Shown here: positions 2,758 through 64,000 of the stretch, piece by piece
Layout: every line of letters begins with the position of its first letter
How positions within the stretch are numbered: the first letter of the stretch is position 1
Source of the DNA: a virus
Reading direction: 5' to 3' (one strand)
IMG/VR virus record: IMGVR_UViG_3300049048_000052
Location: 86,643 to 150,642 of that record
Length of the DNA stretch: 64,000 bases
Made by a program: the position numbers and the translations under genes
Notes under the pieces: generated by a model
The model's database searches: none
What the model was told of the DNA's origin: nothing
The model's input: the letters and a program-made list of their open reading frames with translations, nothing else

Positions 2758-3543
2758 ATGACTAAGGCAAGGATAACCTCTGGCTACTGCGAGGGCAAGA
2801 GGGGTGGCGATAATGGGTACTCTCAATTAATGCTAGGTGTACTAATTCCTAAGGATCATGACACCTGTAAATTGTATGGAGCAGTAGAGGACTTCCAACA
2901 ATCTATTGCTATATGTTTAGAGGCTAACGAGCTAATGGATCCCTCATTAGAGCATGTGATGAAGTGGTTACATACTAATATGTTCTCCCTTTCCTCCTAT
3001 GCTTTTATGAAGGGTGAGACCTCTAACCATGAGATGCCCCAGGGATTCCTTCATTATATTGAGGGAGCCATAGAGGATATGAAGGCTGATATAGGGGATG
3101 CACCTGACTTTCTGGTGTACTCCCATAAGAGTCTCATCCACCTGAATGAAATTAGAATTAGAACTAGAGAAGTAGAAAGTAGATTTGTTGGTTGGAAGCG
3201 TAGCTTGGAGATGCAGTTACACCTCAAGGGACCTCTTGCCGTCCTACCGTTTGAGGTGAATGTCCCTCTCTCCTGGTATGAAGGTAAGCATAGTGCCCTC
3301 GTAGAGAAGCTGTTTGGTAAGAGATACCTTCTCCCGATTATTAATTATCATATACAAGTGTTAAACAGACTTTCCTCTTACTTCTTCTGGGCCTCTAGGG
3401 TTCAGGGTAAATTACTAGCTGGTAGATCTGAGGATAGTGGCCTCATTGAGAGATACTGGCAGGGTAAGATTGAGGAATTCGATATTGATTGTGCTAAACA
3501 GAAGGAAGCATATGTCGGAAGAACAATTGGAGCAACAGCCTGA
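2758..3543 (+). CDS. hypothetical protein
   Basis: 261-aa ORF. Confidence 0.5.
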   Translation: MTKARITSGYCEGKRGGDNGYSQLMLGVLIPKDHDTCKLYGAVEDFQQSIAICLEANELMDPSLEHVMKWLHTNMFSLSSYAFMKGETSNHEMPQGFLHYIEGAIEDMKADIGDAPDFLVYSHKSLIHLNEIRIRTREVESRFVGWKRSLEMQLHLKGPLAVLPFEVNVPLSWYEGKHSALVEKLFGKRYLLPIINYHIQVLNRLSSYFFWASRVQGKLLAGRSEDSGLIERYWQGKIEEFDIDCAKQKEAYVGRTIGATA

Positions 3544-4454: not shown

Positions 4455-5300
4455 ATGACGGCCTGGTGTAAGACGGATAAGGGCATTACTGCTTCCTATA
4501 GAGGCAAGATATATAACATATTAAGTACTAATCCTAAATATGGTGAGATCATTGAGCTCATTAAGGCTAAGGAATGGGAGAGTGCTATTGAGTTACTTGA
4601 TGTAGCTCAGACAATCGAAAAGAAATCTGATGGTGCCTTTAGTGTTAGGGATGGTCTAGTGTATGTTAAGGGTGAGGATCGTCCTCTACCCGAGGTGTTA
4701 TCTAAGAGAGTCCTAGACTTCTATGAGGAGGGCCTAGATTATGCACCGTTACTTAAGTTCTGGGGCCATGTTAAGTTGAACCCCAGTAACCGGGCAGTGG
4801 ATAGATTATATGAATGTCTAGAACATAATCATCATCCTATTACTGAGGACGGCAACTTCCTTGCATATAAGAAGGTAAGGCAGAGTCCTGATGGTAACCT
4901 ATATGATATTTATACCTATAGGAATGATAAGGGGACCTTCCTTAATAATGTAGGTCTTACTGTAACTATACAAAGGAATCTAGTTGATGAGAATATCGAC
5001 CAAACATGCTCTTATGGGTTGCATGTGGCTTCTTATGATTATGCTGCTAGAGTTTATGGTTCTGATAGCGATGTGCTCCTAGAGGTCGAGGTTAATCCTA
5101 AGGACGTAGTTGCTATTCCTCGTGACTATAATAACCAAAAGATGAGAGTCTGTGCCTATAAGGTATTAGCTATCAGTGCTGGTTATGAGAGGACTGAGGC
5201 ATACGTTGGGTATGATCAGTACGAGGATGAGGACGAAGAGGAAGCCTATTGGGATGACCATTACAGCTATCTCTATGGGGACTATGATGAAGAATACTAA
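4455..5300 (+). CDS. hypothetical protein with acidic C-terminal tail
   Basis: 281-aa ORF preceded by GGTATATAAAC next to the ATG; C-terminus is a DEDEEEAYWDD...DYDEEY acidic tail. Confidence 0.55.
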   Translation: MTAWCKTDKGITASYRGKIYNILSTNPKYGEIIELIKAKEWESAIELLDVAQTIEKKSDGAFSVRDGLVYVKGEDRPLPEVLSKRVLDFYEEGLDYAPLLKFWGHVKLNPSNRAVDRLYECLEHNHHPITEDGNFLAYKKVRQSPDGNLYDIYTYRNDKGTFLNNVGLTVTIQRNLVDENIDQTCSYGLHVASYDYAARVYGSDSDVLLEVEVNPKDVVAIPRDYNNQKMRVCAYKVLAISAGYERTEAYVGYDQYEDEDEEEAYWDDHYSYLYGDYDEEY

Positions 5301-12041: not shown

Positions 12042-12830
12042 ATGGATCTGGCAGTCAGGATCAAGGAATTCTATGAGTATGCATACCGCACCTTCCTACC
12101 CAGGAGGATGCCAGTCATACTTAGAGTAGATGGTAAGGCATTCCACTCTTATACAAGGGGTATGAATAGACCCTTTGATGAGAGATTGGAAGAAGTAATG
12201 AACCTTGTAGCTATTAAGCTATGTAAGGAAATACAAGGTGCTCAGATAGCCTATGTGCAATCTGATGAGATCAGTATATTAATTCATGGTTATAAGAAGC
12301 TCAATAGTGAGTCATGGTTTGGTAATAATGTACAGAAGATGACCAGTGTTAGTGCTGGTATAGCTAGTGCATGGTTTACCTACCACTCATCTAGGTTAAC
12401 TACTGTATCTGAGGATATAGGTAATACCCAACAGTTTATAGAATCTAAGCTAAAGCCAGCAGTATTTGACTCTAGGGTATTCGTACTCCCTGAATCAGAG
12501 GTATGTAACTACTTCATATGGAGACAGCAGGATGCTACTCGCAATAGTATCTCTATGCTTGCCCAGTCTTTATACTCCCATAAGGAGTTAAATGGGGTTA
12601 CATGTAATCAGATGCAGGAGCTCTGTTTCCAGAAGGGTCATAACTGGAATGATCTACCTATCATTAGAAAGAGGGGTAGATGTATTCGTAAGTTTATTAG
12701 GTATACACCTGTAGCTGGAAGACCTGAGGGTAATACAGTTGCTAGATCCTATTGGGATGTAGACTATGAGACTCCTATCTTTACTGAGAATCGTAACTAT
12801 ATTGAAGATCTATTAAAGACATATGAGTAG
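12042..12830 (+). CDS. Thg1-like protein (tRNA-His guanylyltransferase family, 3'-5' nucleotidyltransferase)
   Basis: N-terminus PVILRVDGKAFHSYTR...AYVQSDEISIL reproduces the Thg1 RVDGxxFH and SDE catalytic signatures with the correct spacing. Confidence 0.7.
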   Translation: MDLAVRIKEFYEYAYRTFLPRRMPVILRVDGKAFHSYTRGMNRPFDERLEEVMNLVAIKLCKEIQGAQIAYVQSDEISILIHGYKKLNSESWFGNNVQKMTSVSAGIASAWFTYHSSRLTTVSEDIGNTQQFIESKLKPAVFDSRVFVLPESEVCNYFIWRQQDATRNSISMLAQSLYSHKELNGVTCNQMQELCFQKGHNWNDLPIIRKRGRCIRKFIRYTPVAGRPEGNTVARSYWDVDYETPIFTENRNYIEDLLKTYE

Positions 12831-21969: not shown

Positions 21970-22743
21970 TTGGAGAGGGTCCTTAATGGACCCTCTAATA
22001 ATATGAAGATATTAATAGTAAGTGATATACACTTTGAACGACATGACTACCCTAAGACCTTCATAGATAGATTACCTGAGGCTGATGTACTTATAGTAGC
22101 TGGGGATATGATTCCCTTTACTGATTATAATTATCGGAACGTAGTGTACAGCCTATCCAACAAGTATGATGACTTCATACATATAGCAGGTAATCATGAG
22201 TTCTATGGTAATGGGATAAAAGAGGGCACCCTTATAGCTAGAGAGGAAGAACATAAACAATATAGCTATGTTTACCTAGATAACCAGGTAACTACTGTAG
22301 GTGATACAGACCTTATAAGTATTGCTGGCTCTACCACCTGGTTCCCTTGGGTACCTGAGGTAGATACAGAACGCATATACCTTAATGACTACAACTATAT
22401 AAAAGAGTTCAAGAAGGACCCTAAGGTGCCCCATGAGTTAAATCAGAAGGCCATAGAGTTCTGGTGTAACGTAAATGCTGACATATGGGTGATGCACCAT
22501 TTACCCAGTAAGCAATCAGTACACCCTAAGTATGAGGGTGATGCCTTCAACTGCTTCTTCCTATCTGATATGGAGGAAGTAATAAGAGAGAGGCAACCTA
22601 AGCTAGTTATACATGGGCATACACATGATAGCTTTGATTACCATATAGGTGAGACAAGGGTTATCTGTAATCCCTATGGTTATGACACATGGAACCATAA
22701 GCAATTAAATAAGAACTTTAAACATTTAATCGTGGAGATATAA
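21970..22743 (+). CDS. calcineurin-like metallophosphoesterase
   Basis: ILIVSDIHF, VLIVAGDM, IAGNHEFYG and GHTHD reproduce the four metallophosphoesterase metal-binding motifs in order. Confidence 0.7.
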   Translation: MERVLNGPSNNMKILIVSDIHFERHDYPKTFIDRLPEADVLIVAGDMIPFTDYNYRNVVYSLSNKYDDFIHIAGNHEFYGNGIKEGTLIAREEEHKQYSYVYLDNQVTTVGDTDLISIAGSTTWFPWVPEVDTERIYLNDYNYIKEFKKDPKVPHELNQKAIEFWCNVNADIWVMHHLPSKQSVHPKYEGDAFNCFFLSDMEEVIRERQPKLVIHGHTHDSFDYHIGETRVICNPYGYDTWNHKQLNKNFKHLIVEI

Positions 22744-25475: not shown

Positions 25476-25754
25476 ATGAAACCAGGACCTAAGAAGGGTA
25501 GTAGTCAGAGTAAATCCCATGTTGCCAAGAGGGCCAAGGCTGTAAAAGGTAAGGCCAATGGTATGTTTAAGGATGGAAGACGTTCCTATCGTTCCATAGC
25601 GGGAGCTAGGAATAGCGATGGAAAAGTTGTGCATCACAAGGACGGTGATAGGACCAATAATTCAAGATCTAATCTAAAGGTCCTGAATGATGGTCCTAGT
25701 AGGCCAGGTAGGAAGACAACTAGTAAGCATGAAAGACTTACTAGACGTAAGTAG
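25476..25754 (+). CDS. small basic HNH (HNH_3-type) endonuclease-like protein
   Basis: 92 aa, K/R-rich, with VVHHKDGDRTNNSRSNLKVL (the HH.DG...NN...NL pattern of HNH_3-type homing endonucleases); ends exactly where a tRNA-like gene begins. Confidence 0.5.
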   Translation: MKPGPKKGSSQSKSHVAKRAKAVKGKANGMFKDGRRSYRSIAGARNSDGKVVHHKDGDRTNNSRSNLKVLNDGPSRPGRKTTSKHERLTRRK

Positions 25755-25924
25755 CCAGTGTAGCTTAAAAGGTAAAGCGTACCCCTCTCAGGGTATACCG
25801 AAAGGGTCCATAGGTAATAGGTGTAGTTGCAAGATTCTGTGAGAGTTATAAACTCCGTATTCGGCAGAGTCCCAGACTGCACAACTATACCTATGGATAT
25901 GAGGGTTCGATCCCCTTCACTGGC
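25754..25924 (+). tRNA. tRNA-like gene (anticodon-arm loop CTCTCA, Glu-like) with about 100-nt insertion after the anticodon arm
   Basis: 5' part 25754..25795: acceptor GCCAGTG, D-arm GCTT/AAAAGGTA/AAGC, stem TACCC/GGGTA. 3' part 25901..25924: T-arm GAGGG/TTCGATC/CCCTT, acceptor CACTGGC pairing 7/7. Confidence 0.35.
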
Positions 25925-26012
25925 GTTGACTAAGATAGAACAATGAGACATAAAGAAATGCCCCTCTATGTAAGACACATAAGAGGGGGTCCAATTAACT
26001 TAGGAGTAAATA

Positions 26013-29656: not shown

Positions 29657-30060
29657 CAGATCCGGAGTTAGAGGTCATTAAGCAAAGGGAACTTGATAGG
29701 TGGACCCAAGCTATCATGCTCTTAATGTCTGTGGGCCTAAGTGCGCCCGCATCTATGTCCCATCGTTACGGGTTCTACCTTATCTTTGAGCAGGTTATGA
29801 GACCTGGGCTCACCTGTAATGTTGAGTATATGGCTGATGGTTGGTGTAGAGTAACTCTGACTGATGGTTATACTAAATGGACCGCCTATGGTTACCATTT
29901 ACTCTTTGCTATGACTAAGGCAACCCTACATTACCTTGGGGTTAGTGTGGATACCCTAGAGGACGAGGAAGAAGAATCCGAGTTAAATGAGGTACCTGAT
30001 TTACAGGTCATGATGCCTAGCTTTAAGTGCTAGATAAGAGGGCCCTTATAGGCCCTCTTT

Positions 30061-33787: not shown

Positions 33788-33847
33788 ATCTTAGGGCGTA
33801 AGCCCTTATTCATTCCTCAGTGGCGCAGTGGATAGCGCACCCGCCTT

Positions 33848-34537
33848 TAGGATAGGAGCACTTCTAGGGGAAACCCTTAAAGTGAATGTGGTTAAATTCA
33901 GGGAAGACTAAGTAGATTATGATCAAACTCCCAATGACAGTTAGGACATAGAGGTACTAAGTTGTCTACAGAGTTAATGTCGTTAACTAAGGTTTCATGT
34001 GGAAAACTAGAGATGGCCTTTCTATGGGCTATTTCAACATGTTTGTTATACCCACAGTTAATACAACAAGACCAGTCGAGTTTTGCTGCTACAGCTCTAG
34101 CCCTTGCTCTAACTAAAGCATAGGCTGAGGACCTGTGATGTTTATTGTACATGGCTTCTTCTAAAGTGACATTTAGATTTAGTCCCTTACGATGAGATCC
34201 AAAGCAGGATTTACAGTAGGTTCTGGAGTTACTTATAGGAGTGGTGCATACCAAGCATTTATTCTCGGGTTTCCTCTTGGGGAAATTACGATTATTATGT
34301 GTAGCAGCACAACTCTTACTACAGAACTTAGGGTTAGTTGTTTCCTTATTACAGTTGAGACAATTCATAGTTTATATGTTAATCCTGAGCCAAGCTATTC
34401 GAAAGCCCTATTATATCATGGGTTCGAATAGAAGGTGCAGAGACTTAACAGCCACCACCTAAGGTCATAAGACTATGGTGAAGATAAAGTCCAGACTACA
34501 AACACTCTTGAGTGGCAGCTAAAGCTGTAGTAGGAGG
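33848..34537 (+). mobile_element. group I-like intron in the tRNA anticodon loop (between nt 34 and 35)
   Basis: TTCAGGGAAGACTAAG (33897..33912) and AAGATAAAGTCCAGACTACAA (34481..34501) resemble the group I R and S (P7) elements; terminal G before the 3' exon; about 210 nt of non-ORF sequence. Confidence 0.55.
33898..34368 (-). CDS. HNH homing endonuclease, encoded antisense inside the tRNA intron
   Basis: 156 aa; CINCGYNKHVEIAH...NLVPLCPNCH is a classic HNH motif, plus N-terminal CxxC pairs. Confidence 0.7.
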   Translation of the reverse strand: MNCLNCNKETTNPKFCSKSCAATHNNRNFPKRKPENKCLVCTTPISNSRTYCKSCFGSHRKGLNLNVTLEEAMYNKHHRSSAYALVRARARAVAAKLDWSCCINCGYNKHVEIAHRKAISSFPHETLVNDINSVDNLVPLCPNCHWEFDHNLLSLP

Positions 34538-43311: not shown

Positions 43312-43857
43312 TTAACTCATTGGAGTTAGTTGGTGTATTAGTTTATAAGCGTTCTTAACTAGATCTCTAGAGAGCATCTTACCACCAGATATCAATTTTA
43401 TAATTGGGTTCTTGCGTGAGTGGTCTAACTGAAATCTAGCTTGAGGATATAAGTCCAGGAAGGATGTGGCAGTATCTTTATTAGAGGCAGCTATTTCTAT
43501 CCTATAAGTCTTAACTTTATAGACTTGTACTAAAAGTTGCTTTATCAGATCTATTAAAGTAGGATCCTGGTTGCAGAAGTAAACATGATTTGTTTTATCT
43601 GTATGCCAGCCCTCACATAAATAGGCCGTATGGGCAGCAATGGAAAGAGGTGTTAGGAGTAAATCATCTGTAGGGGAGATATAGTTCTTCCTAGCTAGAA
43701 AGTTATACTCTGAGGCAGATCTCATTGGTATATGGTACTTCCTTAAGTAAGACCTAATAGTCTTATGGTTACAGGCTAGTAACTGACCTATCTGATAGGG
43801 ATTAAGTTCCTGAGTCAGGTATAGATCCTCAAGTACCTCTTTATTAATTAACTTCAT
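43312..43857 (-). CDS. intron-encoded protein, antisense (HTH plus LAGLIDADG-like, putative homing endonuclease)
   Basis: 181 aa inside the second tRNA intron; N-terminal helix-turn-helix-like segment and AYLCEGWHTDK, loosely resembling a single LAGLIDADG motif. Confidence 0.5.
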   Translation of the reverse strand: MKLINKEVLEDLYLTQELNPYQIGQLLACNHKTIRSYLRKYHIPMRSASEYNFLARKNYISPTDDLLLTPLSIAAHTAYLCEGWHTDKTNHVYFCNQDPTLIDLIKQLLVQVYKVKTYRIEIAASNKDTATSFLDLYPQARFQLDHSRKNPIIKLISGGKMLSRDLVKNAYKLIHQLTPMS

Positions 43858-44111
43858 AATCCTGAGCCTTCATGTAGAAATACATGTTGTGAACGAAGCT
43901 ATATGCGGGAAACGCTTAAAGCCTACAACACTATATGTCTACCAAGATATAAGTAACAGTTTGTAGGATGTAACAATAGCCAATCCGCAGGGAAGATACC
44001 TAGGTATCCCCTCAGAGACTAAACGCTTTGCACCTTAACGTAGAGACGAAGGTGATGATATAGTCCAGACTACAACAGCTTACGCTGGCCTATGAAAGTA
44101 GGAGTAGTAAG
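43314..44111 (+). mobile_element. group I-like intron in the tRNA-Leu anticodon loop (between nt 34 and 35)
   Basis: TCAGAGACTAAACGC (44012..44026) resembles R; GATGATATAGTCCAGACTACAACAGC (44054..44079) resembles S; terminal G; near-identical S region to the first intron. Confidence 0.55.
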
Positions 44112-44266
44112 AGGAACCTGTGCCGCAAGGCGTGAGAGTTCGAATCTCTCCTCCCCCATTTACAGTAGTGAGCACACGGTATGATGTAGGGTTCCCCCTA
44201 CTTGTACTAAGGCTAATACCTTTGCTATATTCACTACTGTAAACATATTGATTGTTTCTAATAATT

Positions 44267-44683
44267 ATGGAAACACAAATGGCATTATTTGGTTTTGGTG
44301 GTTCTAACTCTGCTATCGATGAGTTAAGCCGTGTCTTAGGTGCAAGTAGCTCTATTGCTAGCCAACAGAGTCCCCCGTATGAAATTGGGATCTCTGATCG
44401 TAAACTAGTAGTTAAGTTCATAGTACCTGGTATCGATAAGGATACTGTTGATGTGACCATCCATGATAAGTACGTAGAGCTATATGGCATGCGTAAGAAG
44501 GATGATAAGTTAGCAGTTGAACTGAGTGAGTTCTATTACGGTAAGGTTTATCGTACAGCCCCACTAAGTCAGAGAGTAGACAGAAACTCTGCCTCTGTAT
44601 CTTACTCAGATGGTATTCTGACTCTCTCTATGGATCTATTACCAGTTAATCCTCCCACTGCGGTTAGGGTTAAATTAGGTTAA
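44267..44683 (+). CDS. Hsp20/alpha-crystallin family small heat-shock protein
   Basis: Alpha-crystallin-domain-like blocks (KFIVPGIDKDTVDVTIHDKYVELYG..., SVSYSDGILTLSM); ATG at 44267 preferred over the listed TTG. Confidence 0.55.
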   Translation: METQMALFGFGGSNSAIDELSRVLGASSSIASQQSPPYEIGISDRKLVVKFIVPGIDKDTVDVTIHDKYVELYGMRKKDDKLAVELSEFYYGKVYRTAPLSQRVDRNSASVSYSDGILTLSMDLLPVNPPTAVRVKLG

Positions 44684-45666: not shown

Positions 45667-45898
45667 TTGTCAGTTTACCTGTCCTGACGTTGTGAAAAGA
45701 TAGGTGTAGGTCATAGGCCTAACTAGCAAGAATTGAGTTCGAATCTCAACAGGTCCATTTCGAGGGCCTGACTTGGTAATCGATTGTTAGCATGAGGAAC
45801 TATGACTGAAGGTGTGTACAACCAAAGTACAGAACAACAAGTGCAACCAATAACATTGTACCCTTCTCAAGGGTAAGTTCTATAGTAGTGTAATCTAC

Positions 45899-46663
45899 TC
45901 AGGCGTTTAGTATACTAAACGCCTGCTCTTTTTTACGCATACAGTAGGGACCACCTAAGTTATATAACCTAAATATAAAAGTCTTAAGGATTTTACCTTG
46001 AAAGGAGAAACCGTACTGATTATTCCAGTTGGGATTCTTACTTTGCAAGTCCCTCATATGTACATTAAGGGATATATCTAGTAGTTTGTTGAGCCTAGAG
46101 GCTAGAGTATACATAAAAGACTTTGAGCATCCATAGGCTGTAAGTCTACGGGAGGACCAACACCCGTCAGAGTCTAGATATCCTCTAATGAAATCTAACT
46201 CGTAGACGCTGTCTATAAGAGGCTCAGGGTAAATCATAGTCTTGGACTTATTACTTTCTAACTTTAGGATAGTAGTTAGATCTCTATGTAGACTAGTGGA
46301 ACATATAGCGAGCTGAAGACAGTTAGAAGCTATATTCCTTATTTTATAATCGGTATTGAGGTTAGATTGTATCTGTTCTAGAATATCCCTGTCCGAGGTA
46401 GTAAATACTATCTGACATCCATTTCTATGTAAGTGACCATCCCCATACAATACACCTAACATCCAAGCTTTAAAGGTGTCCATAGGGAACAATTTATAGT
46501 TCTTAAGCTTAGATAATGGCTTATAGGACATTGCCCCGGAGCTCTGCAGGACTTTGTATATACAATAAGAGGATAGCCCTAATTTAGAACTAATATTTGT
46601 AACAGACTGACCCTCCTTATACATAGTTATAATAGGCGTTGGGTTAATATGAGTAGATTTCAT
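45899..46663 (-). CDS. LAGLIDADG homing endonuclease (two-motif type)
   Basis: WMLGVLYGDGHL and FIRGYLDSDGCW are the two LAGLIDADG motifs; N-terminal HTH-like segment. Confidence 0.7.
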   Translation of the reverse strand: MKSTHINPTPIITMYKEGQSVTNISSKLGLSSYCIYKVLQSSGAMSYKPLSKLKNYKLFPMDTFKAWMLGVLYGDGHLHRNGCQIVFTTSDRDILEQIQSNLNTDYKIRNIASNCLQLAICSTSLHRDLTTILKLESNKSKTMIYPEPLIDSVYELDFIRGYLDSDGCWSSRRLTAYGCSKSFMYTLASRLNKLLDISLNVHMRDLQSKNPNWNNQYGFSFQGKILKTFIFRLYNLGGPYCMRKKEQAFSILNA

Positions 46664-48105: not shown

Positions 48106-48419
48106 TTTATATGTGCCTATCTTATTCAGTCGGCATATGTAACTATATAAATATCTCCATCAAACTGATAGAGTCATAGAGCCTATATGGTCTCTGACTA
48201 AGAGCTGATACGGATGGAATATTGGGGGATAGGTACTCCCGATGAGGGCCCCAGCTCTCAACACAAATATCAGCTCTCCTAGCAACTAACTGGCTTATGC
48301 TAACCCTTAATCAGGTAATCATATATTGGTTCAACTCCAATAGTTGCTTTTCCCAGTCGCATAACTTGCGTTCCCAACTGGGATTCTTAGCAATGGTTGG
48401 CTTAGTCCAATCATTTCTT

Positions 48420-48492
48420 GAGGCTGTCGTCTAAAATGGTAGGACTCCCCAAGTTAGTGGGGCAGATGTAGGTTCAAATCCTACCGGCTTCA
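48420..48492 (+). tRNA. tRNA with non-canonical anticodon loop
   Basis: Acceptor GAGGCTG/CGGCTTC, D-arm GTCT/AAAATGGTA/GGAC, stem CCCCA/TGGGG enclosing a 6-nt loop AGTTAG (or 4-bp stem plus 8-nt loop), T-arm GTAGG/TTCAAAT/CCTAC. Confidence 0.45.
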
Positions 48493-48497
48493 TTTAT

Positions 48498-55116: not shown

Positions 55117-55821
55117 ATGAATCTAATATTAGTTGGGGCTGGGCAATTGGGCTCAGCCTTTATCTTGGAATTGCTTAAACGGATATCGGCTACAGGTTTC
55201 ACTGCTATCACTATACATATCTATGATGATGATATCGTAGAGGATAGGAATACCCATGTACAGTATTTCACCCCCAGGGATCGAGAGAAGCCCAAGGCTG
55301 TGGTTATGGCTGACCTGGCTGCAGAGTATGGTATAAAGGCCATCGCCCATGTTGAGCGCTTTGCCTTCCCAGATCTACAAGCTATGGAGAACGTGGTAGT
55401 GGTTGATGCTGTAGACAATGTCAGCACCAGGTATGCTCTGTGGAACTATGCGGTAACACAGAATGTACCCCTGATGACTATGGGTAATAGCCTGAAGGGT
55501 AATGGCTTTGTCACATGGACCTGTGCTGCCTTTGATCACAACACCTGGGGCCTAGGTGCAGGTAGCTACACTGCAATCATGAATGCAATCGAGAAAGAAA
55601 AGGAACCTGAAGAGAAGGTACCCCCTTGTGAACTAACTAAGTATAGAGGTCTAGCCCTTAATACTGCGTTGGCCGCATGTGAGGCATTCCTTATCTATTG
55701 GGGTCAGGATGTCATGATTAGAATAGACCCTGAGGTATATCAAGCTGGCTTCGTCACTGAGTGGCGTATCAAGCCCGAGGGTTATGAGTTGGTTCACATT
55801 AGTTATATGGAAGGTAAGTAG
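55117..55821 (+). CDS. ThiF/MoeB (E1-like) adenylyltransferase family protein
   Basis: LVGAGQLGSAF Rossmann GxGxxG followed by IHIYDDDIVEDRNTHVQYF (matches the ThiF D.D.Ve.sNl.RQ block); C-terminal GLALNTALAACEAFLIYWG resembles the ThiF C-terminal motif. Confidence 0.6.
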   Translation: MNLILVGAGQLGSAFILELLKRISATGFTAITIHIYDDDIVEDRNTHVQYFTPRDREKPKAVVMADLAAEYGIKAIAHVERFAFPDLQAMENVVVVDAVDNVSTRYALWNYAVTQNVPLMTMGNSLKGNGFVTWTCAAFDHNTWGLGAGSYTAIMNAIEKEKEPEEKVPPCELTKYRGLALNTALAACEAFLIYWGQDVMIRIDPEVYQAGFVTEWRIKPEGYELVHISYMEGK

Positions 55822-57214: not shown

Positions 57215-59326
57215 ATGGATAGAAGATATTTTGAACTGATTAAACCTAAGTACTTGACTTGGGAGTTTCTATCTAAGTATGTGGAGGTCAAGCCTCCTTT
57301 TGGGGCTATAGGACCCATCGTATATCTAAGGACATACTCTAGGTTTGTCCCTCAAATGAGCAGGAGGGAGTTGTGGTGGGAGACCTGTATGAGGGTAACT
57401 GAATATAGTATGTCCCTATTCCCAGCTAAGCCTAGGTACCCTATGTCCTTCGAGGAGTTACAGGCAGAGGCAGAGGAACTCTTTGATAACCTATTCTGGA
57501 TGAAGGTCTTTGCTGCAGGGCGTACTATGTTCACTGGAGGGGCCCAACTGAAGACTGGGGACTCTCAATTCAATTGTAGCTTTATTGCTGTTAGTGAGTT
57601 GAAGGCATTCAAGGATGCCCTGTATCTCCTGATGAATGGTTGTGGTGTTGGTTTCTCAGTTGAGAGGCAGTACACGGAGAATCTACCCAGGTTCAGACAG
57701 GACTTTAAGGTTAGACATCTGGATTATAATCCGATAGCTAGGGGAAAAAGAGAGGACATCACTCGTCTTGAAGAGGATGATAACAACCACATAATCAAGA
57801 TAGGAGATAGTAAGGAAGGCTGGTGCGATGCACTGTTTGGTTTCCTGTCTAACTTAGCAGATCTGAGCTGTTGGAAGAACTTTGTATTTATATACAACGA
57901 TGTCAGACCTGAGGGTGAGAAGCTTAAGACCTTTGGTGGTAGAGCCAGTGGGCCTGCACCCCTAAGACTAATGTTCGAGCGTATTGAACAGACCATCAAG
58001 GAAGCGCCTAAGGGTCATCTGAGACCTGTAGACGTAATGGATATCATGAATATCATTGCGGCCGCAGTAGTTGTAGGTGGTGTCCGTAGGTCCTCTGAGA
58101 TTGCCTTTGGTAACCTAGATGATGTGGACTTCGTAGAGGCTAAGCTGAACCTATGGTCTGATCCAGATAAGCAAAGGTACCAGGCTACTAGAGTTCTCTC
58201 CAATAACTCTGTGGCTATATGGGAGAAACCTAGTAAGGCCCAGCTAGTAGATATATTTGAACGTATTAAGAATAATGGTGAGCCTGGCATCTCTATTGCA
58301 GGTAATGCCGCTAAGAGAAGACCTAACTATAAGGGCTCTAATCCATGTCATGAGATCCTATTGGATCATAATGGAGTATGTAATTTAACTACTATAAATA
58401 TGGCTGCCTTTGTGGAGGCTGATCGTATCTTTAACTGGAAGGCCTTTGAGAGAGCGCTTTATCATGCAGTCCGTATGGGTTCCCGTATTACCAATGTTAA
58501 TATGTGGGATCCTGATTGGGATTATGTTCAGAAGAGAGACCGCCTACTAGGTGTATCCCTAACTGGTCAAATGGACTGCTGGAATAAGATGGGGGTAGAC
58601 TTTGATAGTACTACTGCCATCAATATACTCTCTAGTGCTAAGGCTTATGCTAGGGCATACGCAGATGAATACCATAATATCATGGGTATTCCTACATCCC
58701 TTCTGATTACTACTGTTAAACCAGAGGGCACGATCTCTCAGTTACCTACAGTAAGCAGTGGGGTCCATGCTAGTTATGCTCCTTATTACATTAGGAGAGT
58801 AAGGATTAGTAGTAATGATCCTGTGGCTAAAGCACTAAGGGACATGGGTCTAGAACCTCAGCCTGAGAATGGACAAGGTAAAGACCTGGATGCTCCTGAC
58901 TGTTCCACCTGGGTATTCAGCTTCCCCATTAAGACTGATGCTAAGATCAGGGCCATTGATGAGCCTGCGATCCGTCAGCTTAAGAGGTACAAGGTTATGA
59001 TGGATGAGTATGTTGATCATACTTGTTCTATTACCGTTACTGTGGCCCCGGATGAATGGGATGAGGTAGTAGATTGGGTCTACGACAATTGGGAGTCCTG
59101 TGTAGGTATTGCATTCTTACCTAGGTTTGATCCTAGTGAGCCGGGTAACATGTACCCTCAGATGCCATATGAGACATGTACTGAAGAACAGTACCATGAG
59201 ATGGTTAAGGCCATGGGTACCATCGATGAGGATGAGCTTGTAGCTTTGATCTCAGTCTTTGAGCAGGAGTACGAGGAGCATGAGCTTGATGCAGGCTGTG
59301 CTACTGGTATGTGTCCCGTTAGATAA
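57215..59326 (+). CDS. ribonucleotide reductase large subunit (class II-like, monomeric type)
   Basis: 703 aa; GSNPCHEIL active-site block (the SN(P/L)C.EI thiyl-radical loop); C-terminal cysteine pair GCATGMCP. Confidence 0.7.
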   Translation: MDRRYFELIKPKYLTWEFLSKYVEVKPPFGAIGPIVYLRTYSRFVPQMSRRELWWETCMRVTEYSMSLFPAKPRYPMSFEELQAEAEELFDNLFWMKVFAAGRTMFTGGAQLKTGDSQFNCSFIAVSELKAFKDALYLLMNGCGVGFSVERQYTENLPRFRQDFKVRHLDYNPIARGKREDITRLEEDDNNHIIKIGDSKEGWCDALFGFLSNLADLSCWKNFVFIYNDVRPEGEKLKTFGGRASGPAPLRLMFERIEQTIKEAPKGHLRPVDVMDIMNIIAAAVVVGGVRRSSEIAFGNLDDVDFVEAKLNLWSDPDKQRYQATRVLSNNSVAIWEKPSKAQLVDIFERIKNNGEPGISIAGNAAKRRPNYKGSNPCHEILLDHNGVCNLTTINMAAFVEADRIFNWKAFERALYHAVRMGSRITNVNMWDPDWDYVQKRDRLLGVSLTGQMDCWNKMGVDFDSTTAINILSSAKAYARAYADEYHNIMGIPTSLLITTVKPEGTISQLPTVSSGVHASYAPYYIRRVRISSNDPVAKALRDMGLEPQPENGQGKDLDAPDCSTWVFSFPIKTDAKIRAIDEPAIRQLKRYKVMMDEYVDHTCSITVTVAPDEWDEVVDWVYDNWESCVGIAFLPRFDPSEPGNMYPQMPYETCTEEQYHEMVKAMGTIDEDELVALISVFEQEYEEHELDAGCATGMCPVR

Positions 59327-59509
59327 ACAATAAGGGCCCCATATGGGGCCCTTAATAATTAGAGGATATAAATATGAATAATGAAGAGCGTAGAACACAC
59401 CTCAATAATCAGAGGGACCGTATAACTAAAAGAATGGAAGCAGCTAAGGATAACCCTGAGTTGCTAGCTATTCTAATAGAAGAGGAGAAGGGTCTCTGGA
59501 ATCAGCTAT

Positions 59510-60274
59510 CTAAGCTGAAATAAAGTGAGCCCACATACCTATTGAGTCAACGCAGGTTTCTGTCATCATGTTATATGAGTACAGGACCTGCTTGCCCTTG
59601 GCTGGGTTGGAACTGTCATTCCTATCGTAGCCCCATTGGTACCACTCACCATAAGGATCATTTACAATGAAGCCCTTGCTATTGTAACCGACCAGCGTAA
59701 CTATGTGACCAGAGGAAGTAAAGTAGCCATGGACAACAACAGGGAAGCCCTTACGTAACCATGCCTTTACCTCATCAAAGTTAGCATTATCAACGAAGGT
59801 ATCCTTAAATCCGAAACCCTTAACAGCCTCAGCCAAGTGTTGAGGAGAGTGTCTAGATAAACCATTAGACTCTACCCACATCTGAATTTCATCCTCTAAC
59901 TGATCAGGGCCCGAGGCACTTAGACCTAGGTATGCCATGGCCATAGCTATAGAGGTAACATTACAGGAGCCATATGGATACATCTTATTATCCAATTGGC
60001 TGAAGTAAGGTACATCTAGTAGTACCTCACCATTAGGTGCCTCCTTGATCTCATGGTCTACAGAGCAATGACCCATGAATACATACCAGGTATTCATATT
60101 GTTAATAAGGTTAGCAGGGTTAAGTACTACTCTATAATGACCTTTCTCAGTAGCAAGTGAATCAACAATGAAGGACTTACCTTTAACTACTGCAGCCTTC
60201 TGATCCTTAGGTAGTTCACTAGCCTGAGCATTGGATCTTTTGAACGTAGTATCAACGTTTACTATTAATTTCAT
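59510..60274 (-). CDS. peptidase C39-like (papain-fold) domain protein, possible cell-wall hydrolase
   Basis: YFSQ.D...YPYGSCNVTSIAMAMAYLG (Gln/Cys block) and GHIVTLVGYN...NDPYG (His block) fit the C39/C39_2 catalytic arrangement. Confidence 0.55.
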   Translation of the reverse strand: MKLIVNVDTTFKRSNAQASELPKDQKAAVVKGKSFIVDSLATEKGHYRVVLNPANLINNMNTWYVFMGHCSVDHEIKEAPNGEVLLDVPYFSQLDNKMYPYGSCNVTSIAMAMAYLGLSASGPDQLEDEIQMWVESNGLSRHSPQHLAEAVKGFGFKDTFVDNANFDEVKAWLRKGFPVVVHGYFTSSGHIVTLVGYNSKGFIVNDPYGEWYQWGYDRNDSSNPAKGKQVLYSYNMMTETCVDSIGMWAHFISA

Positions 60275-60316
60275 ATGATTGGTATTGAGGAAATAACTAT
60301 AACATTATACTAACTT

Positions 60317-61435
60317 ATGGACAGTGAAATAGTAAGCAAGAGGACAATATTGTTAGGCCTTGGGGGTAGTCATTCCTATGGTCTAAATGTAGAAGGTTCT
60401 GATATAGATGGTAAGGGTATATGTGTAGGGCTAAAGGAGCATTACCTAGGCTTCACTACATTTGAACAGAAGGACGCAGGTTGGGATATAAGTAAGACGT
60501 TATGGAAGGATCATCCTATTAAGATAGGTGAGGACCTAGTTGTATATGAACTACGTAAGTACCTGCAGTTGGCTGCGGATGCTAATCCTAATATACTAGA
60601 ACTCCTATGGTTGAAACCAGAGCAGTATCTATTACAGACAGAGGTAGGTGCTGAGCTGATAAAGCATAGGCAACTGTTTATGACTAGTAAGTGTAAATGG
60701 ACCTTTAGTGGTTATGCCCATAGCCAATTAAAGAAGATACAGGCTCACCGTAAGTGGTTATTGGATCCACCGGATAGGAGACCTGAGCCACAGGACTTTG
60801 GTCTTGGTCTGGGTAATAAAGATCCTATGACCAAGGAACAACTACATGCCTTCTATGAGTTTCTATATATCCTGGTTAGAGATGCTATCGAATATGCTCA
60901 ACCAGCTGAGGACTTATATAACATATTAATTGCTCGTATAGATTACAAGGGTCTATTCAAACAACATCCACTATCTATAGGGGTACTGCCCTATGTACAA
61001 TCCTTAACTAGATCCTCTGATGACTTTATAAGTCTACTGCATGCTAGTCAGGAGTATAGAGGAGCTCTGACCCGTTGGGATGCTTATCAGAATTGGAAGC
61101 TTAATCGTAACAAGAAGAGGGCAGCTACTGAGGCCGCTATTGGTTATGACAGCAAACATGGTATGCATCTAGTAAGACTGTTGTCTATGGGTATTGAGAT
61201 CCTAGAGACAGGGGAGCTTATAGTGGATAGAGGCATAGCTGGGGATAGAGATGATCTTATGGCCATACGTAACTGCGAGTGGCCCTATGAGAAGCTAATG
61301 GACTATGTTAGTCTCTTAGAGCAAAGAGTAGAGGATGCGTTTAAGCAAACTAGACTTCCTAGATCCTGTGACCGAACTAAGGTCAATGAGTTGTGTATTG
61401 AGTTAGTTGAGATAATGGGTTGGTATGACTATTAG
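60317..61435 (+). CDS. Pol-beta-superfamily nucleotidyltransferase
   Basis: LGLGGSHSYGLNVEGSDIDGKGI is the hG[GS]x9-13[DE]h[DE]h nucleotidyltransferase signature; 372 aa. Confidence 0.6.
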   Translation: MDSEIVSKRTILLGLGGSHSYGLNVEGSDIDGKGICVGLKEHYLGFTTFEQKDAGWDISKTLWKDHPIKIGEDLVVYELRKYLQLAADANPNILELLWLKPEQYLLQTEVGAELIKHRQLFMTSKCKWTFSGYAHSQLKKIQAHRKWLLDPPDRRPEPQDFGLGLGNKDPMTKEQLHAFYEFLYILVRDAIEYAQPAEDLYNILIARIDYKGLFKQHPLSIGVLPYVQSLTRSSDDFISLLHASQEYRGALTRWDAYQNWKLNRNKKRAATEAAIGYDSKHGMHLVRLLSMGIEILETGELIVDRGIAGDRDDLMAIRNCEWPYEKLMDYVSLLEQRVEDAFKQTRLPRSCDRTKVNELCIELVEIMGWYDY

Positions 61436-61925
61436 GAAACTATACGGGGACATTGTCAGTCTCGCCATTGATGCTTCTACTACACATAAGATAGTGATAG
61501 CCCATCAGGTTAATTGTATCCCTATTATGGGAGCTGGATTAGCTCTGCAAATAGCGAATGCTTTTCCTAATGTGGAGAGGGAGTATCGTCTTAAGCATGA
61601 TGGTTGGAGATTAGGGGATCTACAGATCGTAACCACACATTACTACCCTAATATCTGTGTGGCTAACCTAGCAGGTCAGAGAGGTGTAAAGAGCCGTACT
61701 AATCCAGTACCCACTAATCTGAAGGCCCTTAGTTTGGCTTTGGAGGGTTTGTCTCAGTGGAGATCCTCTGATGAGGCTACTGGGTACAAGCTATTATTCC
61801 CTATTGGTATGGGTTGCGGTCATGGGGGAGAATCCTGGGAAAGGGTTCAACCTATTATTGAGGAAAGGATGCAGCCTCATCATGAGTTCTGCTTCTTTGT
61901 TAAGAGAGACAGAAGAAGGACGTAA
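61425..61925 (+). CDS. macro domain protein
   Basis: IVIAHQVNC...MGAGLALQIANAFP resembles the macro domain ADP-ribose-binding loops (NAAN...GGGV.GAI analogue). Confidence 0.6.
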   Translation: MTIRKLYGDIVSLAIDASTTHKIVIAHQVNCIPIMGAGLALQIANAFPNVEREYRLKHDGWRLGDLQIVTTHYYPNICVANLAGQRGVKSRTNPVPTNLKALSLALEGLSQWRSSDEATGYKLLFPIGMGCGHGGESWERVQPIIEERMQPHHEFCFFVKRDRRRT

Positions 61926-61958
61926 TTAGGGGGCCTATAACAGGCCCTCATTAACAAT

Positions 61959-64000
61959 ATGAAACTAGCTATACCCACAGTAAATATAGAAAGATCGGAC
62001 GTTACTACTGAGGTGGTAATGGGTATTGATGATGCTAATAAGCACGTCATTATGAACTTATTGAGATCAGAGCTGTACTCTGACCCTATAGGATCCTTTG
62101 TCAGAGAGATTATTAGTAACGCTGTTGATGCACATACTCGATCTAAACAGGATCGGCCTGTAGAGGTAACATTACCTAATCCATTTGCCCCTGAGTTAGT
62201 AGTTAGGGACTATGGATACTCTATGACTATAAAGGTTATAGAACTTATATATTCTCAGTTAGGTACCTCTACTAAAAGAGATAGTAATGAGGAGTTAGGA
62301 TGCTTTGGTATTGGCGCAGCCAGTCCTCTATCCTATGCTAGTAACTTTAGTATAGAAACTATTACATTAGAAGATAATAGGTTTATTAAGAGACTTTGGG
62401 TACAGTATGTAGATGAAAGTCTCATCGGTAAGCTGAGTCTACTTGGTGAGGAGGAAGTTGAGGGCCCTACAGGTACCACTATCAAAATACCTATAGAGAA
62501 GGATGATTATACAACTGTGTCTAACTCGGTTGTGTACTTTACTCAGTTCCTAAGGGATAGGGTTAGTATTACCAATATTGGTAATAGGAGCTATAAGGAG
62601 TATACCTACTATCATGAACAGGATGACTGGAAGTGGATAGGCAGTCATGTTGGTAGCCCCTATCAGATGGATCGGGTTGCTGATAACTCACTGGTCATCA
62701 TGGGCGGCATACCATATCCTATAAACACTAGCTCGTTAGGTTTAAAGGATAGTAAGATGGTAACCCTAATGAAGTCGGGTCTACATCTACATGCCCCATT
62801 AGGTTCTGTTACTCTAACACCTAGTAGGGAGAATCTTAAATATAGCGATAAGACTAAACAGTATTTAGCTAATAAGCTTATTGAGATATCTGCTGAATTA
62901 ACTAAGGTAGCCGAACGTTCTGTAGCGGACTGTAAGTATATACATACAGCAGCTAAGACTTATAGTGAGTTGCCTCAAGCATTGAAGGCTGTCGTGAATT
63001 GTAGCCAATGGAGGGGTCATGTCCTGAAGTCAGGTATAAACCTACCTGAGGGATTAAGGGCTGAGTCTTTTGGTGTTGAGAATGCTTATACTAATCAGGG
63101 CTATAAGGAAGTTGTTAAGTCTAAGAAGTTAGCTAGTGTAGAGCTATTACGTGATACCACCTTCTGGATTAATGATCTAGGAGGTAAGATAGCTAACAAG
63201 GAGATCGTCACCAAATATGTCATAGAGAAGAAAGGGTCCCTTGTTGTATTCACAACCCTAGAACCTAGTGATGAAATAACTGAGTTCCTTAAGTTGTTCG
63301 ATACAAGTCTCATGAGCACCTTATATCCTAACTTTGTTAAGACAAAGAATAGAGCATTAAGAGGTCATGTCGATGGATATACCTTTGACCCTGATCTACA
63401 CAGATCTAATACAAGAGGGATACATGCTAACTTATTACCTACTAAGATACCAAGGGATAAGGGCGGTATATATCTAGTTGTGGATGGGGGTATCCGCTGT
63501 ACTCATGCTGTTAGTATGGGGGCCTGGTATTACGGTCAACAACCTGCAGAACTAGATAGACTAACTAAGACCTTAGGTTGTGAGGTAAAGGGTATGCCTG
63601 TCTTTAATAAGTCTGTCCTACAGAAACTAGATGAGACATGGTTGACCTTTCAGCAGGCAGTAGATAACTATGTGGATGCTCTACCTAATAAGGAGCAACT
63701 CATGTCTAACCTATTGGATACTGACTATTATTATAATAAGCAATACTCACAGCTCTATAAGCAGAGTAAGGACTTTCTAGAAGGGTTAGATCCTAAGTCA
63801 ATGTTAATTACTTATATGGTAACGTCCTCTACGAAAGAGGTTAAGATGCGGGATGATAAGACCAGTCCTTATCATATGATAGCCAGCTGTACTCAATATC
63901 ATACCTATAAATTAGAAGGTAAGTCAGAGTTAAAGGATTTATATACAGCCTGCAGATCAAGGTACCCAATGTTAGAACTTGGAACCTATGTAACTCCTGC
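61959..64000 (+). CDS. GHKL/HATPase_c-family ATPase (runs past the window end)
   Basis: Own translation from the ATG at 61959: EIISNAVDA (N box), RDYGYSM (G1) and LGCFGIGAAS (G2) in the correct order; the ORF is open to the end of the window. Confidence 0.5.
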   Translation, partial: MKLAIPTVNIERSDVTTEVVMGIDDANKHVIMNLLRSELYSDPIGSFVREIISNAVDAHTRSKQDRPVEVTLPNPFAPELVVRDYGYSMTIKVIELIYSQLGTSTKRDSNEELGCFGIGAASPLSYASNFSIETITLEDNRFIKRLWVQYVDESLIGKLSLLGEEEVEGPTGTTIKIPIEKDDYTTVSNSVVYFTQFLRDRVSITNIGNRSYKEYTYYHEQDDWKWIGSHVGSPYQMDRVADNSLVIMGGIPYPINTSSLGLKDSKMVTLMKSGLHLHAPLGSVTLTPSRENLKYSDKTKQYLANKLIEISAELTKVAERSVADCKYIHTAAKTYSELPQALKAVVNCSQWRGHVLKSGINLPEGLRAESFGVENAYTNQGYKEVVKSKKLASVELLRDTTFWINDLGGKIANKEIVTKYVIEKKGSLVVFTTLEPSDEITEFLKLFDTSLMSTLYPNFVKTKNRALRGHVDGYTFDPDLHRSNTRGIHANLLPTKIPRDKGGIYLVVDGGIRCTHAVSMGAWYYGQQPAELDRLTKTLGCEVKGMPVFNKSVLQKLDETWLTFQQAVDNYVDALPNKEQLMSNLLDTDYYYNKQYSQLYKQSKDFLEGLDPKSMLITYMVTSSTKEVKMRDDKTSPYHMIASCTQYHTYKLEGKSELKDLYTACRSRYPMLELGTYVTP

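Follow-up and report, generated by a model that had tools for sequence, protein, structure and literature searches.

The region under study occupies positions 59510-64000 of a 64-kb window of viral DNA (IMG/VR record IMGVR_UViG_3300049048_000052), the window being the whole stretch that was analysed and the one on which all positions are numbered. Four genes lie there. The list of open reading frames (ORFs) together with Pfam gives a Peptidase_C39_2-type peptidase of 254 aa on the minus strand (59510-60274) and an RlaP nucleotidyltransferase (NTase) of 372 aa on the plus strand (60317-61435). The next plus-strand ORF is identified by profiles and a fold search as a macrodomain protein of 166 aa (61425-61925), and the last (61959-64000, plus strand), of which 680 of 695 residues are encoded within the window, is recognized from PHROG and Pfam matches as a homologue of rIIA. 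The explanation that best accounts for the locus as a whole, and that we favour with moderate confidence, is that the segment is the 3' end of an early plus-strand accessory block, made up of tRNA-maintenance and counter-defence genes, in the genome of a jumbo phage, and that its four genes encode separate enzymes of known families, not one machine.

The NTase is a member of the RlaP family: Pfam RlaP (PF10127) matches it with an E value of 1.1e-18 and 68.3 bits (cut-off 23), the same Pfam family is found on an identical protein from JGI, and phrog_388 matches residues 3-364 (5.4e-51). The initial annotation had recognized a Pol-beta-type NTase from the pattern GS...SDIDG, and both motifs are present, as G17-S18 and S28-D29-I30-D31-G32. 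In an alignment of 31 homologues, G17, S18 and D29 are invariant and D31 and D73 occur in at least 90% of the sequences (an alignment of 20 homologues was also examined). The AlphaFold2 (AF2) model, with a predicted local distance difference test (pLDDT) score of 92.7, has an alpha/beta N-terminal NTase domain and is all-helical from residue 126 to 367. No match to PDB sequences was obtained with the single sequence or with a 20-sequence profile. A Foldseek search of the model, which the initial annotation had proposed as a means of placing the NTase, yielded nothing significant in the PDB, the best hits (E of at least 0.03) being KNTase-like minimal NTases, HalB and MntA. The identities suggested earlier for the enzyme, CCA-adding or CD-NTase, gave way to RlaP, there being no Pfam, PADLOC or NCBIfam hit and no Foldseek similarity to either.

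RlaP was named after its linkage to RNA ligases and is the commonest end-restoring NTase of jumbo phages, whose RlaP genes have already been catalogued (Iyer et al. 2021, PMC7824862). According to a 2025 preprint, two Pseudomonas enzymes, PfRlaP and PaRlaP, add one or two nucleoside monophosphates (NMPs) to the 3'-OH of RNA in a Mn2+-dependent reaction, favour mimics of cleaved tRNA, are inactive on DNA and protein, and partly restore aminoacylation of a tRNA that lacks one anticodon-loop nucleotide; NrdC.11 of phage T4 belongs to the same family (PMC12776372). By analogy with these characterized enzymes, the RlaP of the window is predicted to add one or two NMPs to the 3'-OH ends of RNA, tRNA in particular, before ligation. 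Its nearest relatives (47-56% identity) are found in filamentous cyanobacteria. The gene for the closest cellular homologue (P0020, 55% identity, at 4096-5199 of contig L008) has behind it, after a gap of 3 nt in all three assemblies that were looked at (L008-L010), a gene of the DNA_pol_A_exo1 family encoding an RNase D-like 3'-5' exonuclease, which suggests a cyanobacterial pair that trims and rebuilds RNA 3' ends.

The profile searches that bear on the macro motif gave a divided result. Pfam Macro (PF01661) remains under its 22-bit cut-off (E = 0.038, 14.4 bits), and is precomputed on some homologues of the protein. Taken strictly, the refuting condition attached to the initial annotation would on this score reject the macrodomain. 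The motif is supported by PHROG 335 (3e-25), whose members are annotated 'phosphatase', by the DarG models of NCBIfam (5.3e-12, 45.6 bits) and PADLOC (4.5e-11), and by phmmer matches to PDB entry 5e3b, which is SCO6735 (5.8e-12), as well as to the macrodomains of BT1257 and DarG. The AF2 model (pLDDT 91.3) strengthens the assignment, its best Foldseek matches in the PDB being 2fg1 (9e-11), 5e3b (1.8e-10), 5m3e (3e-9), 6lfq (4e-9) and 4j5q (7e-8); the best folds are those of BT1257, SCO6735, DarG, Poa1p and TARG1. Sequence and model together place the protein in the ALC1-like class (TARG1/DarG/SCO6735/Poa1p), and the subtype, a classification that the initial annotation had called for, is that of SCO6735. 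Asn30 aligns with Asn27 of SCO6735 and Asn22 of DarG, and Gln85 occupies the position of the catalytic lysine of DarG, TARG1 and AdfM, a position that is glutamine in SCO6735. None of the 79 IMG/VR homologues that were aligned departs from either residue. The protein also has a glycine-rich phosphate loop (130-136) and a basic loop (R86, K89 and R91), and it matches 261 phage records of INPHARED.

In SCO6735, Gln85 is essential; the enzyme releases ADP-ribose from thymine in DNA that DarT has modified and rescues DarT-intoxicated cells, Lys34 is important for its activity on DNA, Lys34 and Lys89 position the DNA, and a long basic loop binds it (PMC9411070). SCO6735 takes uracil-linked ADP-ribose off single-stranded RNA more efficiently than DarG does (PMC13036486), and is inactive on 5'-phosphate-linked and 2'-OH-linked ADP-ribosylation of RNA (PMC11833690). 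By analogy, the macrodomain protein of the window is predicted to be an ADP-ribosyl hydrolase that acts on nucleic-acid bases. Genes for DarT, Tpt1/KptA, RNA ligase and polynucleotide kinase (PNK) were sought with a Pfam batch of 60 further ORFs and with queries taken from proteins of other phages. Neither a DarT gene nor a DarT-like match was found among the ORFs of the window, and the macrodomain protein has no DarT-binding domain; for both reasons it appears to be an orphan antitoxin-like eraser.

The gene that the initial annotation described as a GHKL ATPase running off the window does so, and has Pfam HATPase_c_3 (PF13589, 2.2e-6) and the Bergerat-fold motifs REIISNAVDA (49-58), DYGYS (84-88) and GCFGIGAAS (114-122). 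Its remainder, the sequencing of which had been proposed initially, was obtained from the Logan contig L004, which is 100% identical to the window over 12,576 nt and extends 7.9 kb further. The complete gene (L004 10535-12622) encodes 695 aa, 15 of them outside the window. PHROG phrog_612, 'RIIA', matches residues 1-672 to model positions 1-699 of 725 (2.3e-78), and the protein is identified from this sequence evidence as a homologue of rIIA with an N-terminal GHKL/Bergerat ATPase domain and a variable C-terminal region. A homologue of rIIB is encoded at 4455-5300 on the plus strand (hmmsearch with a four-phage rIIB profile, 3e-71; phmmer with rIIB of Vibrio phage K470, 2.2e-28), 57 kb upstream of rIIA and so not adjacent to it. 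The rIIA and rIIB genes are adjacent in T4 and most phages. They are also adjacent in K470, L014, L118 and L122, and rIIA or rIIB genes stand a few kilobases from macro or RlaP genes in L014, L020, L076, L118, L122 and Vibrio phage K470. A phage-borne defence system was considered for the region and rejected, PADLOC having reported only DarG (the macrodomain protein) and a weak TmtA (the GHKL domain of rIIA).

The overlap of the NTase and macro genes that had been noted initially amounts to 11 nt, the ATG of the macro gene being at 61425 and the TAG of the RlaP gene at 61433-61435, and the two genes likely form a bicistron that is co-translated. The 33 nt that separate the macro stop codon from the start of rIIA contain a GC-rich stem-loop (GGGGGCCUAUAACAGGCCCUC, 61929-61949, plus strand), detected by RNA folding and motif search, with a folding energy of -15.1 kcal/mol (z = -3.75). 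The lack of a T-tail makes a function in processing or stability, or weak termination, the more likely, and the element would set the RlaP-macro bicistron apart from rIIA. On the other side, a spacer of 42 bp read from the sequence (60275-60316) separates the divergent start codons of the peptidase and RlaP genes, and no strong sigma-70-like site lies inside it. A perfect GC-rich palindromic hairpin (TAAGGGCCCCATATGGGGCCCTTA, 59331-59354), found by a terminator scan and RNA folding, is located just 3' of the stop codon of a class II ribonucleotide reductase (RNR) gene and has a T-rich tail on the minus strand; it folds with -20.4 kcal/mol (z = -4.1 on the plus strand and -3.0 on the minus strand) and looks like the terminator of the peptidase transcript. 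Its opposite orientation, together with this hairpin and T-rich tail, would make the peptidase gene a transcription unit of its own. The motif GGGCC-N(3-9)-GGCCC has three copies in the window (30040-30055, 59334-59351 and 61931-61947) against 0.32 expected, of which the last two bracket the peptidase, RlaP and macro genes; hairpins of this type might serve the phage as a terminator or processing signal peculiar to it. Gene calling on L004 also gave a plus-strand ORF of 49 aa (59374-59523; L004 7950-8099), which converges on the peptidase gene and overlaps its 3' end; it has no Pfam match and may not be a real gene.

The peptidase itself, described initially as a minus-strand C39-like cysteine peptidase, is matched by Pfam Peptidase_C39_2 (PF13529) with an E value of 5.8e-21 and 76 bits (cut-off 24). 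The predicted catalytic triad consists of Cys104 (GSCNVTS), His190 (SSGHIVT) and Asp206 (VNDPYG), each in its expected motif, and about 80 additional residues form a domain N-terminal to the catalytic one. Nothing links the peptidase functionally to RlaP, the macrodomain protein or rIIA.

Scans of IMG/VR with the macrodomain protein or RlaP as single proteins gave no match, and alignments were needed for the neighbourhood surveys. The 80 best RlaP loci of IMG/VR fall into 54 lineages, in which the genes flanking RlaP encode PNK (AAA_33, HAD_PNKP), Metallophos, HD, CCA-adding, Hen1, RNA ligase, HAD_SAK_2 and Thg1 proteins, Metallophos accounting for 3 of 108 adjoining genes. In INPHARED, RlaP is found near a CCA-adding enzyme (rV5-like phages and Vibrio phage 496E54-1) or Thg1 (GAP32), and no macro gene is adjacent to RlaP in Escherichia phage LTH01, Vibrio phage 496E54-1 or Cronobacter phage GAP32. 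The early suggestion of anti-defence or RNA-repair functions is borne out: the NTase is an RlaP repair enzyme whose phage relatives adjoin genes for PNK, phosphoesterase, CCA-adding, Hen1, RNA ligase and Thg1, and the macrodomain falls in the DarG/SCO6735 class of de-ADP-ribosylases.

The 80 best macro loci of IMG/VR represent 31 lineages at 60% identity, and six of these have a match to the RlaP profile within 6 kb of the macro gene. Pfam confirms RlaP in four of the six (the L016 group, the L063 group, L069 and L086); the NTase-like ORFs beside the macro genes of L075 and L087 match the RlaP profile at 1e-7 to 1e-9, lack Pfam confirmation and were not counted as firm. Two further lineages have both genes, namely the window and L006/L007, the latter found by way of protein P0007 and having the gene order RlaP, Y04K, macro. 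At L006 (4800-12441, Logan SRR4039778) the series runs on, from RlaP, a T4 Y04K-family protein and the macro gene to a faint TROVE/Ro60-like gene, cREC, Thg1 and Metallophos, so that this second phage contig has a dense cluster of the RNA-repair type. In the window, L069, the L063 group and L086 no other gene separates the macro and RlaP genes, which either abut or overlap. The order is RlaP-macro in the window and L086 and macro-RlaP in L069 and L063; the occurrence of both orders suggests selection on proximity, not inherited synteny. In a genome of about 200 genes, chance alone would, roughly estimated, bring two single-copy genes side by side in about 1% of cases.

Within two positions of macro genes, the survey found Metallophos (4), cREC (2), RtcB, NAD synthase (2), NAMPT/NAPRTase (2), isochorismatase and DUF4326, Metallophos being the commonest Pfam family with 4 of 123 neighbours. 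In Acinetobacter phage ABPH49 the macro gene abuts RNA ligase 2, and in Vibrio phage K470 it lies between NARP1-type Adps and Namat, a few genes from rIIA and rIIB. In two lineages a PARP-like ADP-ribosyltransferase (with a PARP catalytic domain) is encoded within two genes of the macro gene, which suggests that phages elsewhere encode writer/eraser pairs. The majority of RlaP genes adjoin a gene for PNK, phosphoesterase, CCA-adding enzyme or ligase, whereas NAD+/ADP-ribose or RNA-repair genes adjoin the majority of macro genes. The macro-RlaP neighbourhood is loose and recurrent, and is made up of nucleic-acid repair, NAD+/ADP-ribose and counter-defence genes; early-gene neighbourhoods of this kind have been described before (Iyer et al. 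2021, PMC7824862; Iyer et al. 2022, PMC9503650).

The four genes evidently end a long plus-strand block. On L004, rIIA is followed by an HNH endonuclease gene, an ORF of 159 aa and then convergent tail-fibre genes, which implies that the segment is the 3' end of the block; GC skew is above zero throughout the window. The source is taken to be a jumbo phage because the same proteins are also encoded on a JGI contig of 251,780 bp. Its host is probably a cyanobacterium, as indicated by the cyanobacterial relatives of RlaP and by the homologues of the peptidase in cyanophages. Megablast of positions 59400-64000 against INPHARED gave no match, and an Rfam scan of 59-64 kb matched no RNA family.

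The block contains 13 tRNA genes scattered among small ORFs (17383-50277), including a tandem pair of tRNA-Tyr genes and one gene with an odd anticodon loop (48419-48493). It also contains a gene for a Thg1-like tRNA 5'-end (3'-5') nucleotidyltransferase (12042-12830, plus strand; Pfam PF04446, 1.6e-28), a tRNA-repair or tRNA-maturation function that provides context for RlaP in the same early block; Thg1 recurs close to RlaP and macro genes in other phages. A calcineurin-like metallophosphoesterase (21970-22743, plus strand; Pfam PF00149, 7.5e-16) is a candidate RNA end-healing phosphoesterase, given here as context only. Other ORFs of the block are assigned by Pfam to an AlkB-like oxygenase, YqeY, NT5C, an ITPase-like protein and HSP20.

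Several further features of the window were observed. A cobalamin adenosyltransferase gene (2758-3543) accompanies the B12-dependent class II RNR gene (57215-59326). Group I introns score above the Rfam gathering threshold at 33837-34513 and 43845-44086 on the plus strand, with minus-strand ORFs within or beside them (33898-34368; 43312-43857 and 44080-44490). ARAGORN reports a permuted tmRNA-like gene at 45668-45984 (plus strand), directly 3' of tRNA-Met and not confirmed by Rfam at the gathering score, the 3' end of which is overlapped by a LAGLIDADG homing-endonuclease ORF on the minus strand (45899-46663). At 25754-25925 (plus strand) an Rfam tRNA match spans 172 nt, implying an insertion or intron of about 100 nt, and ARAGORN makes no call there. 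A gene for a ThiF/E1-like adenylyltransferase (55117-55821) stands between ORFs of 495 and 444 aa in the segment 53617-57156 (plus strand). Neither flanking ORF is matched by Pfam, PHROG or NCBIfam, the ThiF stop codon is directly succeeded by the start of the 444-aa ORF, and the ThiF protein matches the PRTRC-system ThiF and the Bil-system E1 (BilD) weakly; the segment could be an uncharacterized phage module for ubiquitin-like conjugation or anti-conjugation.

In the mechanism proposed for the region, RlaP would restore nucleotides that host anticodon nucleases remove from tRNAs, after which a ligase would rebuild a working tRNA. The macrodomain protein, translated from the same message, would use Gln85 to remove the ADP-ribose that DarT2-like toxins of the host place on thymine of the phage's single-stranded DNA, and perhaps also ADP-ribose from uracil of RNA, working like the anti-DarT protein AdfM except by Gln-type catalysis. 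The GHKL ATPase rIIA may serve rII counter-exclusion, a system that is poorly understood. RlaP and the macrodomain protein would be co-expressed, and their genes are often neighbours in other phages, most probably since both are early functions that reverse damage to nucleic acids; sequential action on one substrate would not be necessary.

Certain observations weigh against this account. RNA ligase, PNK and Tpt1/KptA were not found in the 64-kb window or in the 8 kb beyond it; a macro gene is near RlaP in just 3 of the 80 best RlaP loci; and the position of SCO6735 Lys34 is Ala37 in the macrodomain protein, while Lys89, which is kept here, is glycine in most phage relatives. Because of the change at Lys34 and the poor conservation of Lys89 among phage homologues, DNA is perhaps not the substrate. 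The NAD+-salvage neighbours of macro genes (NARP1-like Adps/Namat and NAD synthase) fit soluble ADP-ribose equally. The main rival explanation, which we regard as possible and distinctly less probable, holds that the substrate of the macrodomain protein is a soluble derivative of ADP-ribose and no modified nucleic acid: ADP-ribose-1''-phosphate or Appr>p produced by NAD+-dependent RNA repair, O-acyl-ADP-ribose, or immune signals derived from ADP-ribose. Free ADP-ribose would be released for detoxification or for reconstitution of NAD+, and RlaP would be a neighbour by way of the RNA-repair pathway. The fold match to the ADP-ribose-1''-phosphatase Poa1p (Foldseek 4e-9, TM 0.74-0.79) and the label 'phosphatase' of PHROG 335 are in keeping with this, as are the positions of macro genes between or beside NARP1-type Adps and Namat in K470, L078, L081 and L093 and the recurrence of NAD synthase, NAMPT, isochorismatase, cREC and Metallophos among macro neighbours, and it has been argued that phage macrodomains chiefly target soluble ADP-ribose derivatives (Iyer et al. 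2022, PMC9503650). However, the nearest relatives in sequence and structure are the SCO6735/BT1257 group with the same essential glutamine, the long basic loop that binds DNA in SCO6735 is kept (R86, K89, R91), and neither Tpt1/KptA nor a 2H phosphoesterase or NARP gene was detected in the window. The initial annotation had the NTase and macrodomain making and removing a nucleotide-derived modification or signal. The gene overlap and the recurrence of the two genes as neighbours in other phages speak for such a pair, and the macro genes beside PARP-like ADP-ribosyltransferases in two other lineages suggest that this macro family does take part in writer/eraser pairs, but characterized RlaP enzymes add NMPs, not ADP-ribose, to the 3'-OH of RNA and leave DNA and protein unmodified (PMC12776372), neither Pfam and PADLOC nor Foldseek relates the NTase to CD-NTases or other enzymes that synthesize signals, and macrodomains of this class cleave C1'' linkages of ADP-ribose, not 3'-5' phosphodiesters. 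Since RlaP makes nothing that the macrodomain removes, this pairing is not supported and is considered very improbable. A doubtful extension of base-directed hydrolysis is that RlaP and the Gln-type macrodomain form a two-step module for reversal of RNA damage. The macrodomain would free the uracils, or the ends, of tRNA or mRNA from ADP-ribose attached by a host ADP-ribosyltransferase, and trimmed ends would be rebuilt by RlaP in concert with a ligase and phosphoesterases whose genes lie elsewhere. Some Gln-type phage macrodomains could act on RNA by analogy with SCO6735, as hinted by its activity on uracil in RNA together with the RNA-repair neighbours (RlaP, Metallophos, cREC, RtcB, Rnl2 and Thg1). 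If such a module exists, de-ADP-ribosylation of RNA would be the function of PHROG-335, a large family of phage macrodomains, and a bacterial defence that ADP-ribosylates uracil in RNA would await discovery.

The likeliest activity of the peptidase is cleavage of cell-wall peptides, whether as an endolysin or as a lysin associated with the virion, the former having been among the possibilities raised initially; this role is plausible from annotation and host range. Its best PHROG is 10051, 'endolysin' (3e-23), and its sole sequence match in the PDB, a weak one, is the cell-wall endoisopeptidase PeiR. Cyanophages make up 98 of the 100 INPHARED phage records with a tblastn match to the peptidase (Synechococcus, 'Cyanophage', Leptolyngbya, Microcoleus, Arthronema and Acaryochloris phages), and the homologues carry mixed annotations as endolysin, peptidoglycan-binding protein, lysozyme or cysteine protease. 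It counts against a lysin that the case for it comes from annotation and host range only, and that the homologue in Arthronema virus TR020 is placed between capsid and tail (tail tubular) genes. This placement would suit a protease associated with the virion or its maturation, a secondary Pfam match to Peptidase_C70 (AvrRpt2; PF12385, 7.4e-6) hints at an effector that cleaves a host protein, and the window has a separate gene elsewhere for a DPBB_1 lytic-transglycosylase-like protein. Against these alternatives stand the 'endolysin' PHROG, the labels of endolysin, peptidoglycan-binding protein or lysozyme among cyanophage homologues, and the match to PeiR, and a peptidase other than a lysin is considered possible and distinctly less probable.

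In comparison with known systems, the region consists of divergent new members of known counter-defence families and is no new system. The peptidase differs from the classical C39 bacteriocin-processing peptidases in being a standalone protein of 254 aa, without an ABC-transporter domain or neighbour. The rIIA homologue resembles T4 rIIA in its full-length PHROG match and its N-terminal GHKL ATPase motifs, and differs in that its 3' neighbour is an HNH endonuclease gene, not rIIB. RlaP has, like PfRlaP, PaRlaP and T4 NrdC.11, the GS motif and three catalytic aspartates, and its AF2 model has a helical C-terminal domain. The setting of its gene is apparently also comparable, an early region of a phage where further genes of tRNA repair (Thg1 and phosphoesterase) are encoded. 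It differs in belonging to a longer subtype (372 aa), of which the Pfam model spans only residues 9-142, and unlike the ligase-linked members it has no RNA ligase nearby, the overlapping next gene encoding a macrodomain.

The macrodomain protein shares with SCO6735 (5E3B) and BT1257 the asparagine (Asn27/Asn30), the essential Gln85, the glycine-rich loop and a long basic 'mobile' loop of equal length. SCO6735 is the best sequence match, yet identity is only about 24-33%, Lys34 and Val25 of SCO6735 are replaced by Ala37 and Gln28, and SCO6735 is a chromosomal gene induced by DNA damage, whereas the macro gene is phage-encoded and apparently co-translated with RlaP. The likeness to DarG of DarTG2 is confined to the N-terminal macrodomain of the NCBIfam and PADLOC models (model positions 19-139 of 338), with 45.6 bits against an equivalog cut-off of 250 bits; DarG has in addition a C-terminal DarT-binding domain and an adjacent darT gene, and has Lys80 where the macrodomain protein has glutamine. 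AdfM (phiKZ gp104), a standalone Lys-type phage macrodomain, is a demonstrated anti-DarT2 factor (PMC13309987). The hhalign probability for AdfM and the macrodomain protein is 99%, with Lys78 of AdfM opposite Gln85, and the two are alike in being standalone proteins of about 160 aa of the same structural class, with the conserved asparagine and without a cognate toxin gene. They differ in that AdfM has the DarG-type catalytic lysine where the macrodomain protein and its 79 IMG/VR relatives have glutamine, in identity (22-30%), and in that AdfM was described in nucleus-forming chimalliviruses, of which the phage of the window gives no evidence of being one. The mildly new aspect of the region is this large and uniformly Gln-type family of phage macrodomains (PHROG-335), uncharacterized and distinct from AdfM. 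Since the only proven phage anti-DarT macrodomain is Lys-type, the family readily suggests itself as a candidate second class of de-ADP-ribosylases in phages.

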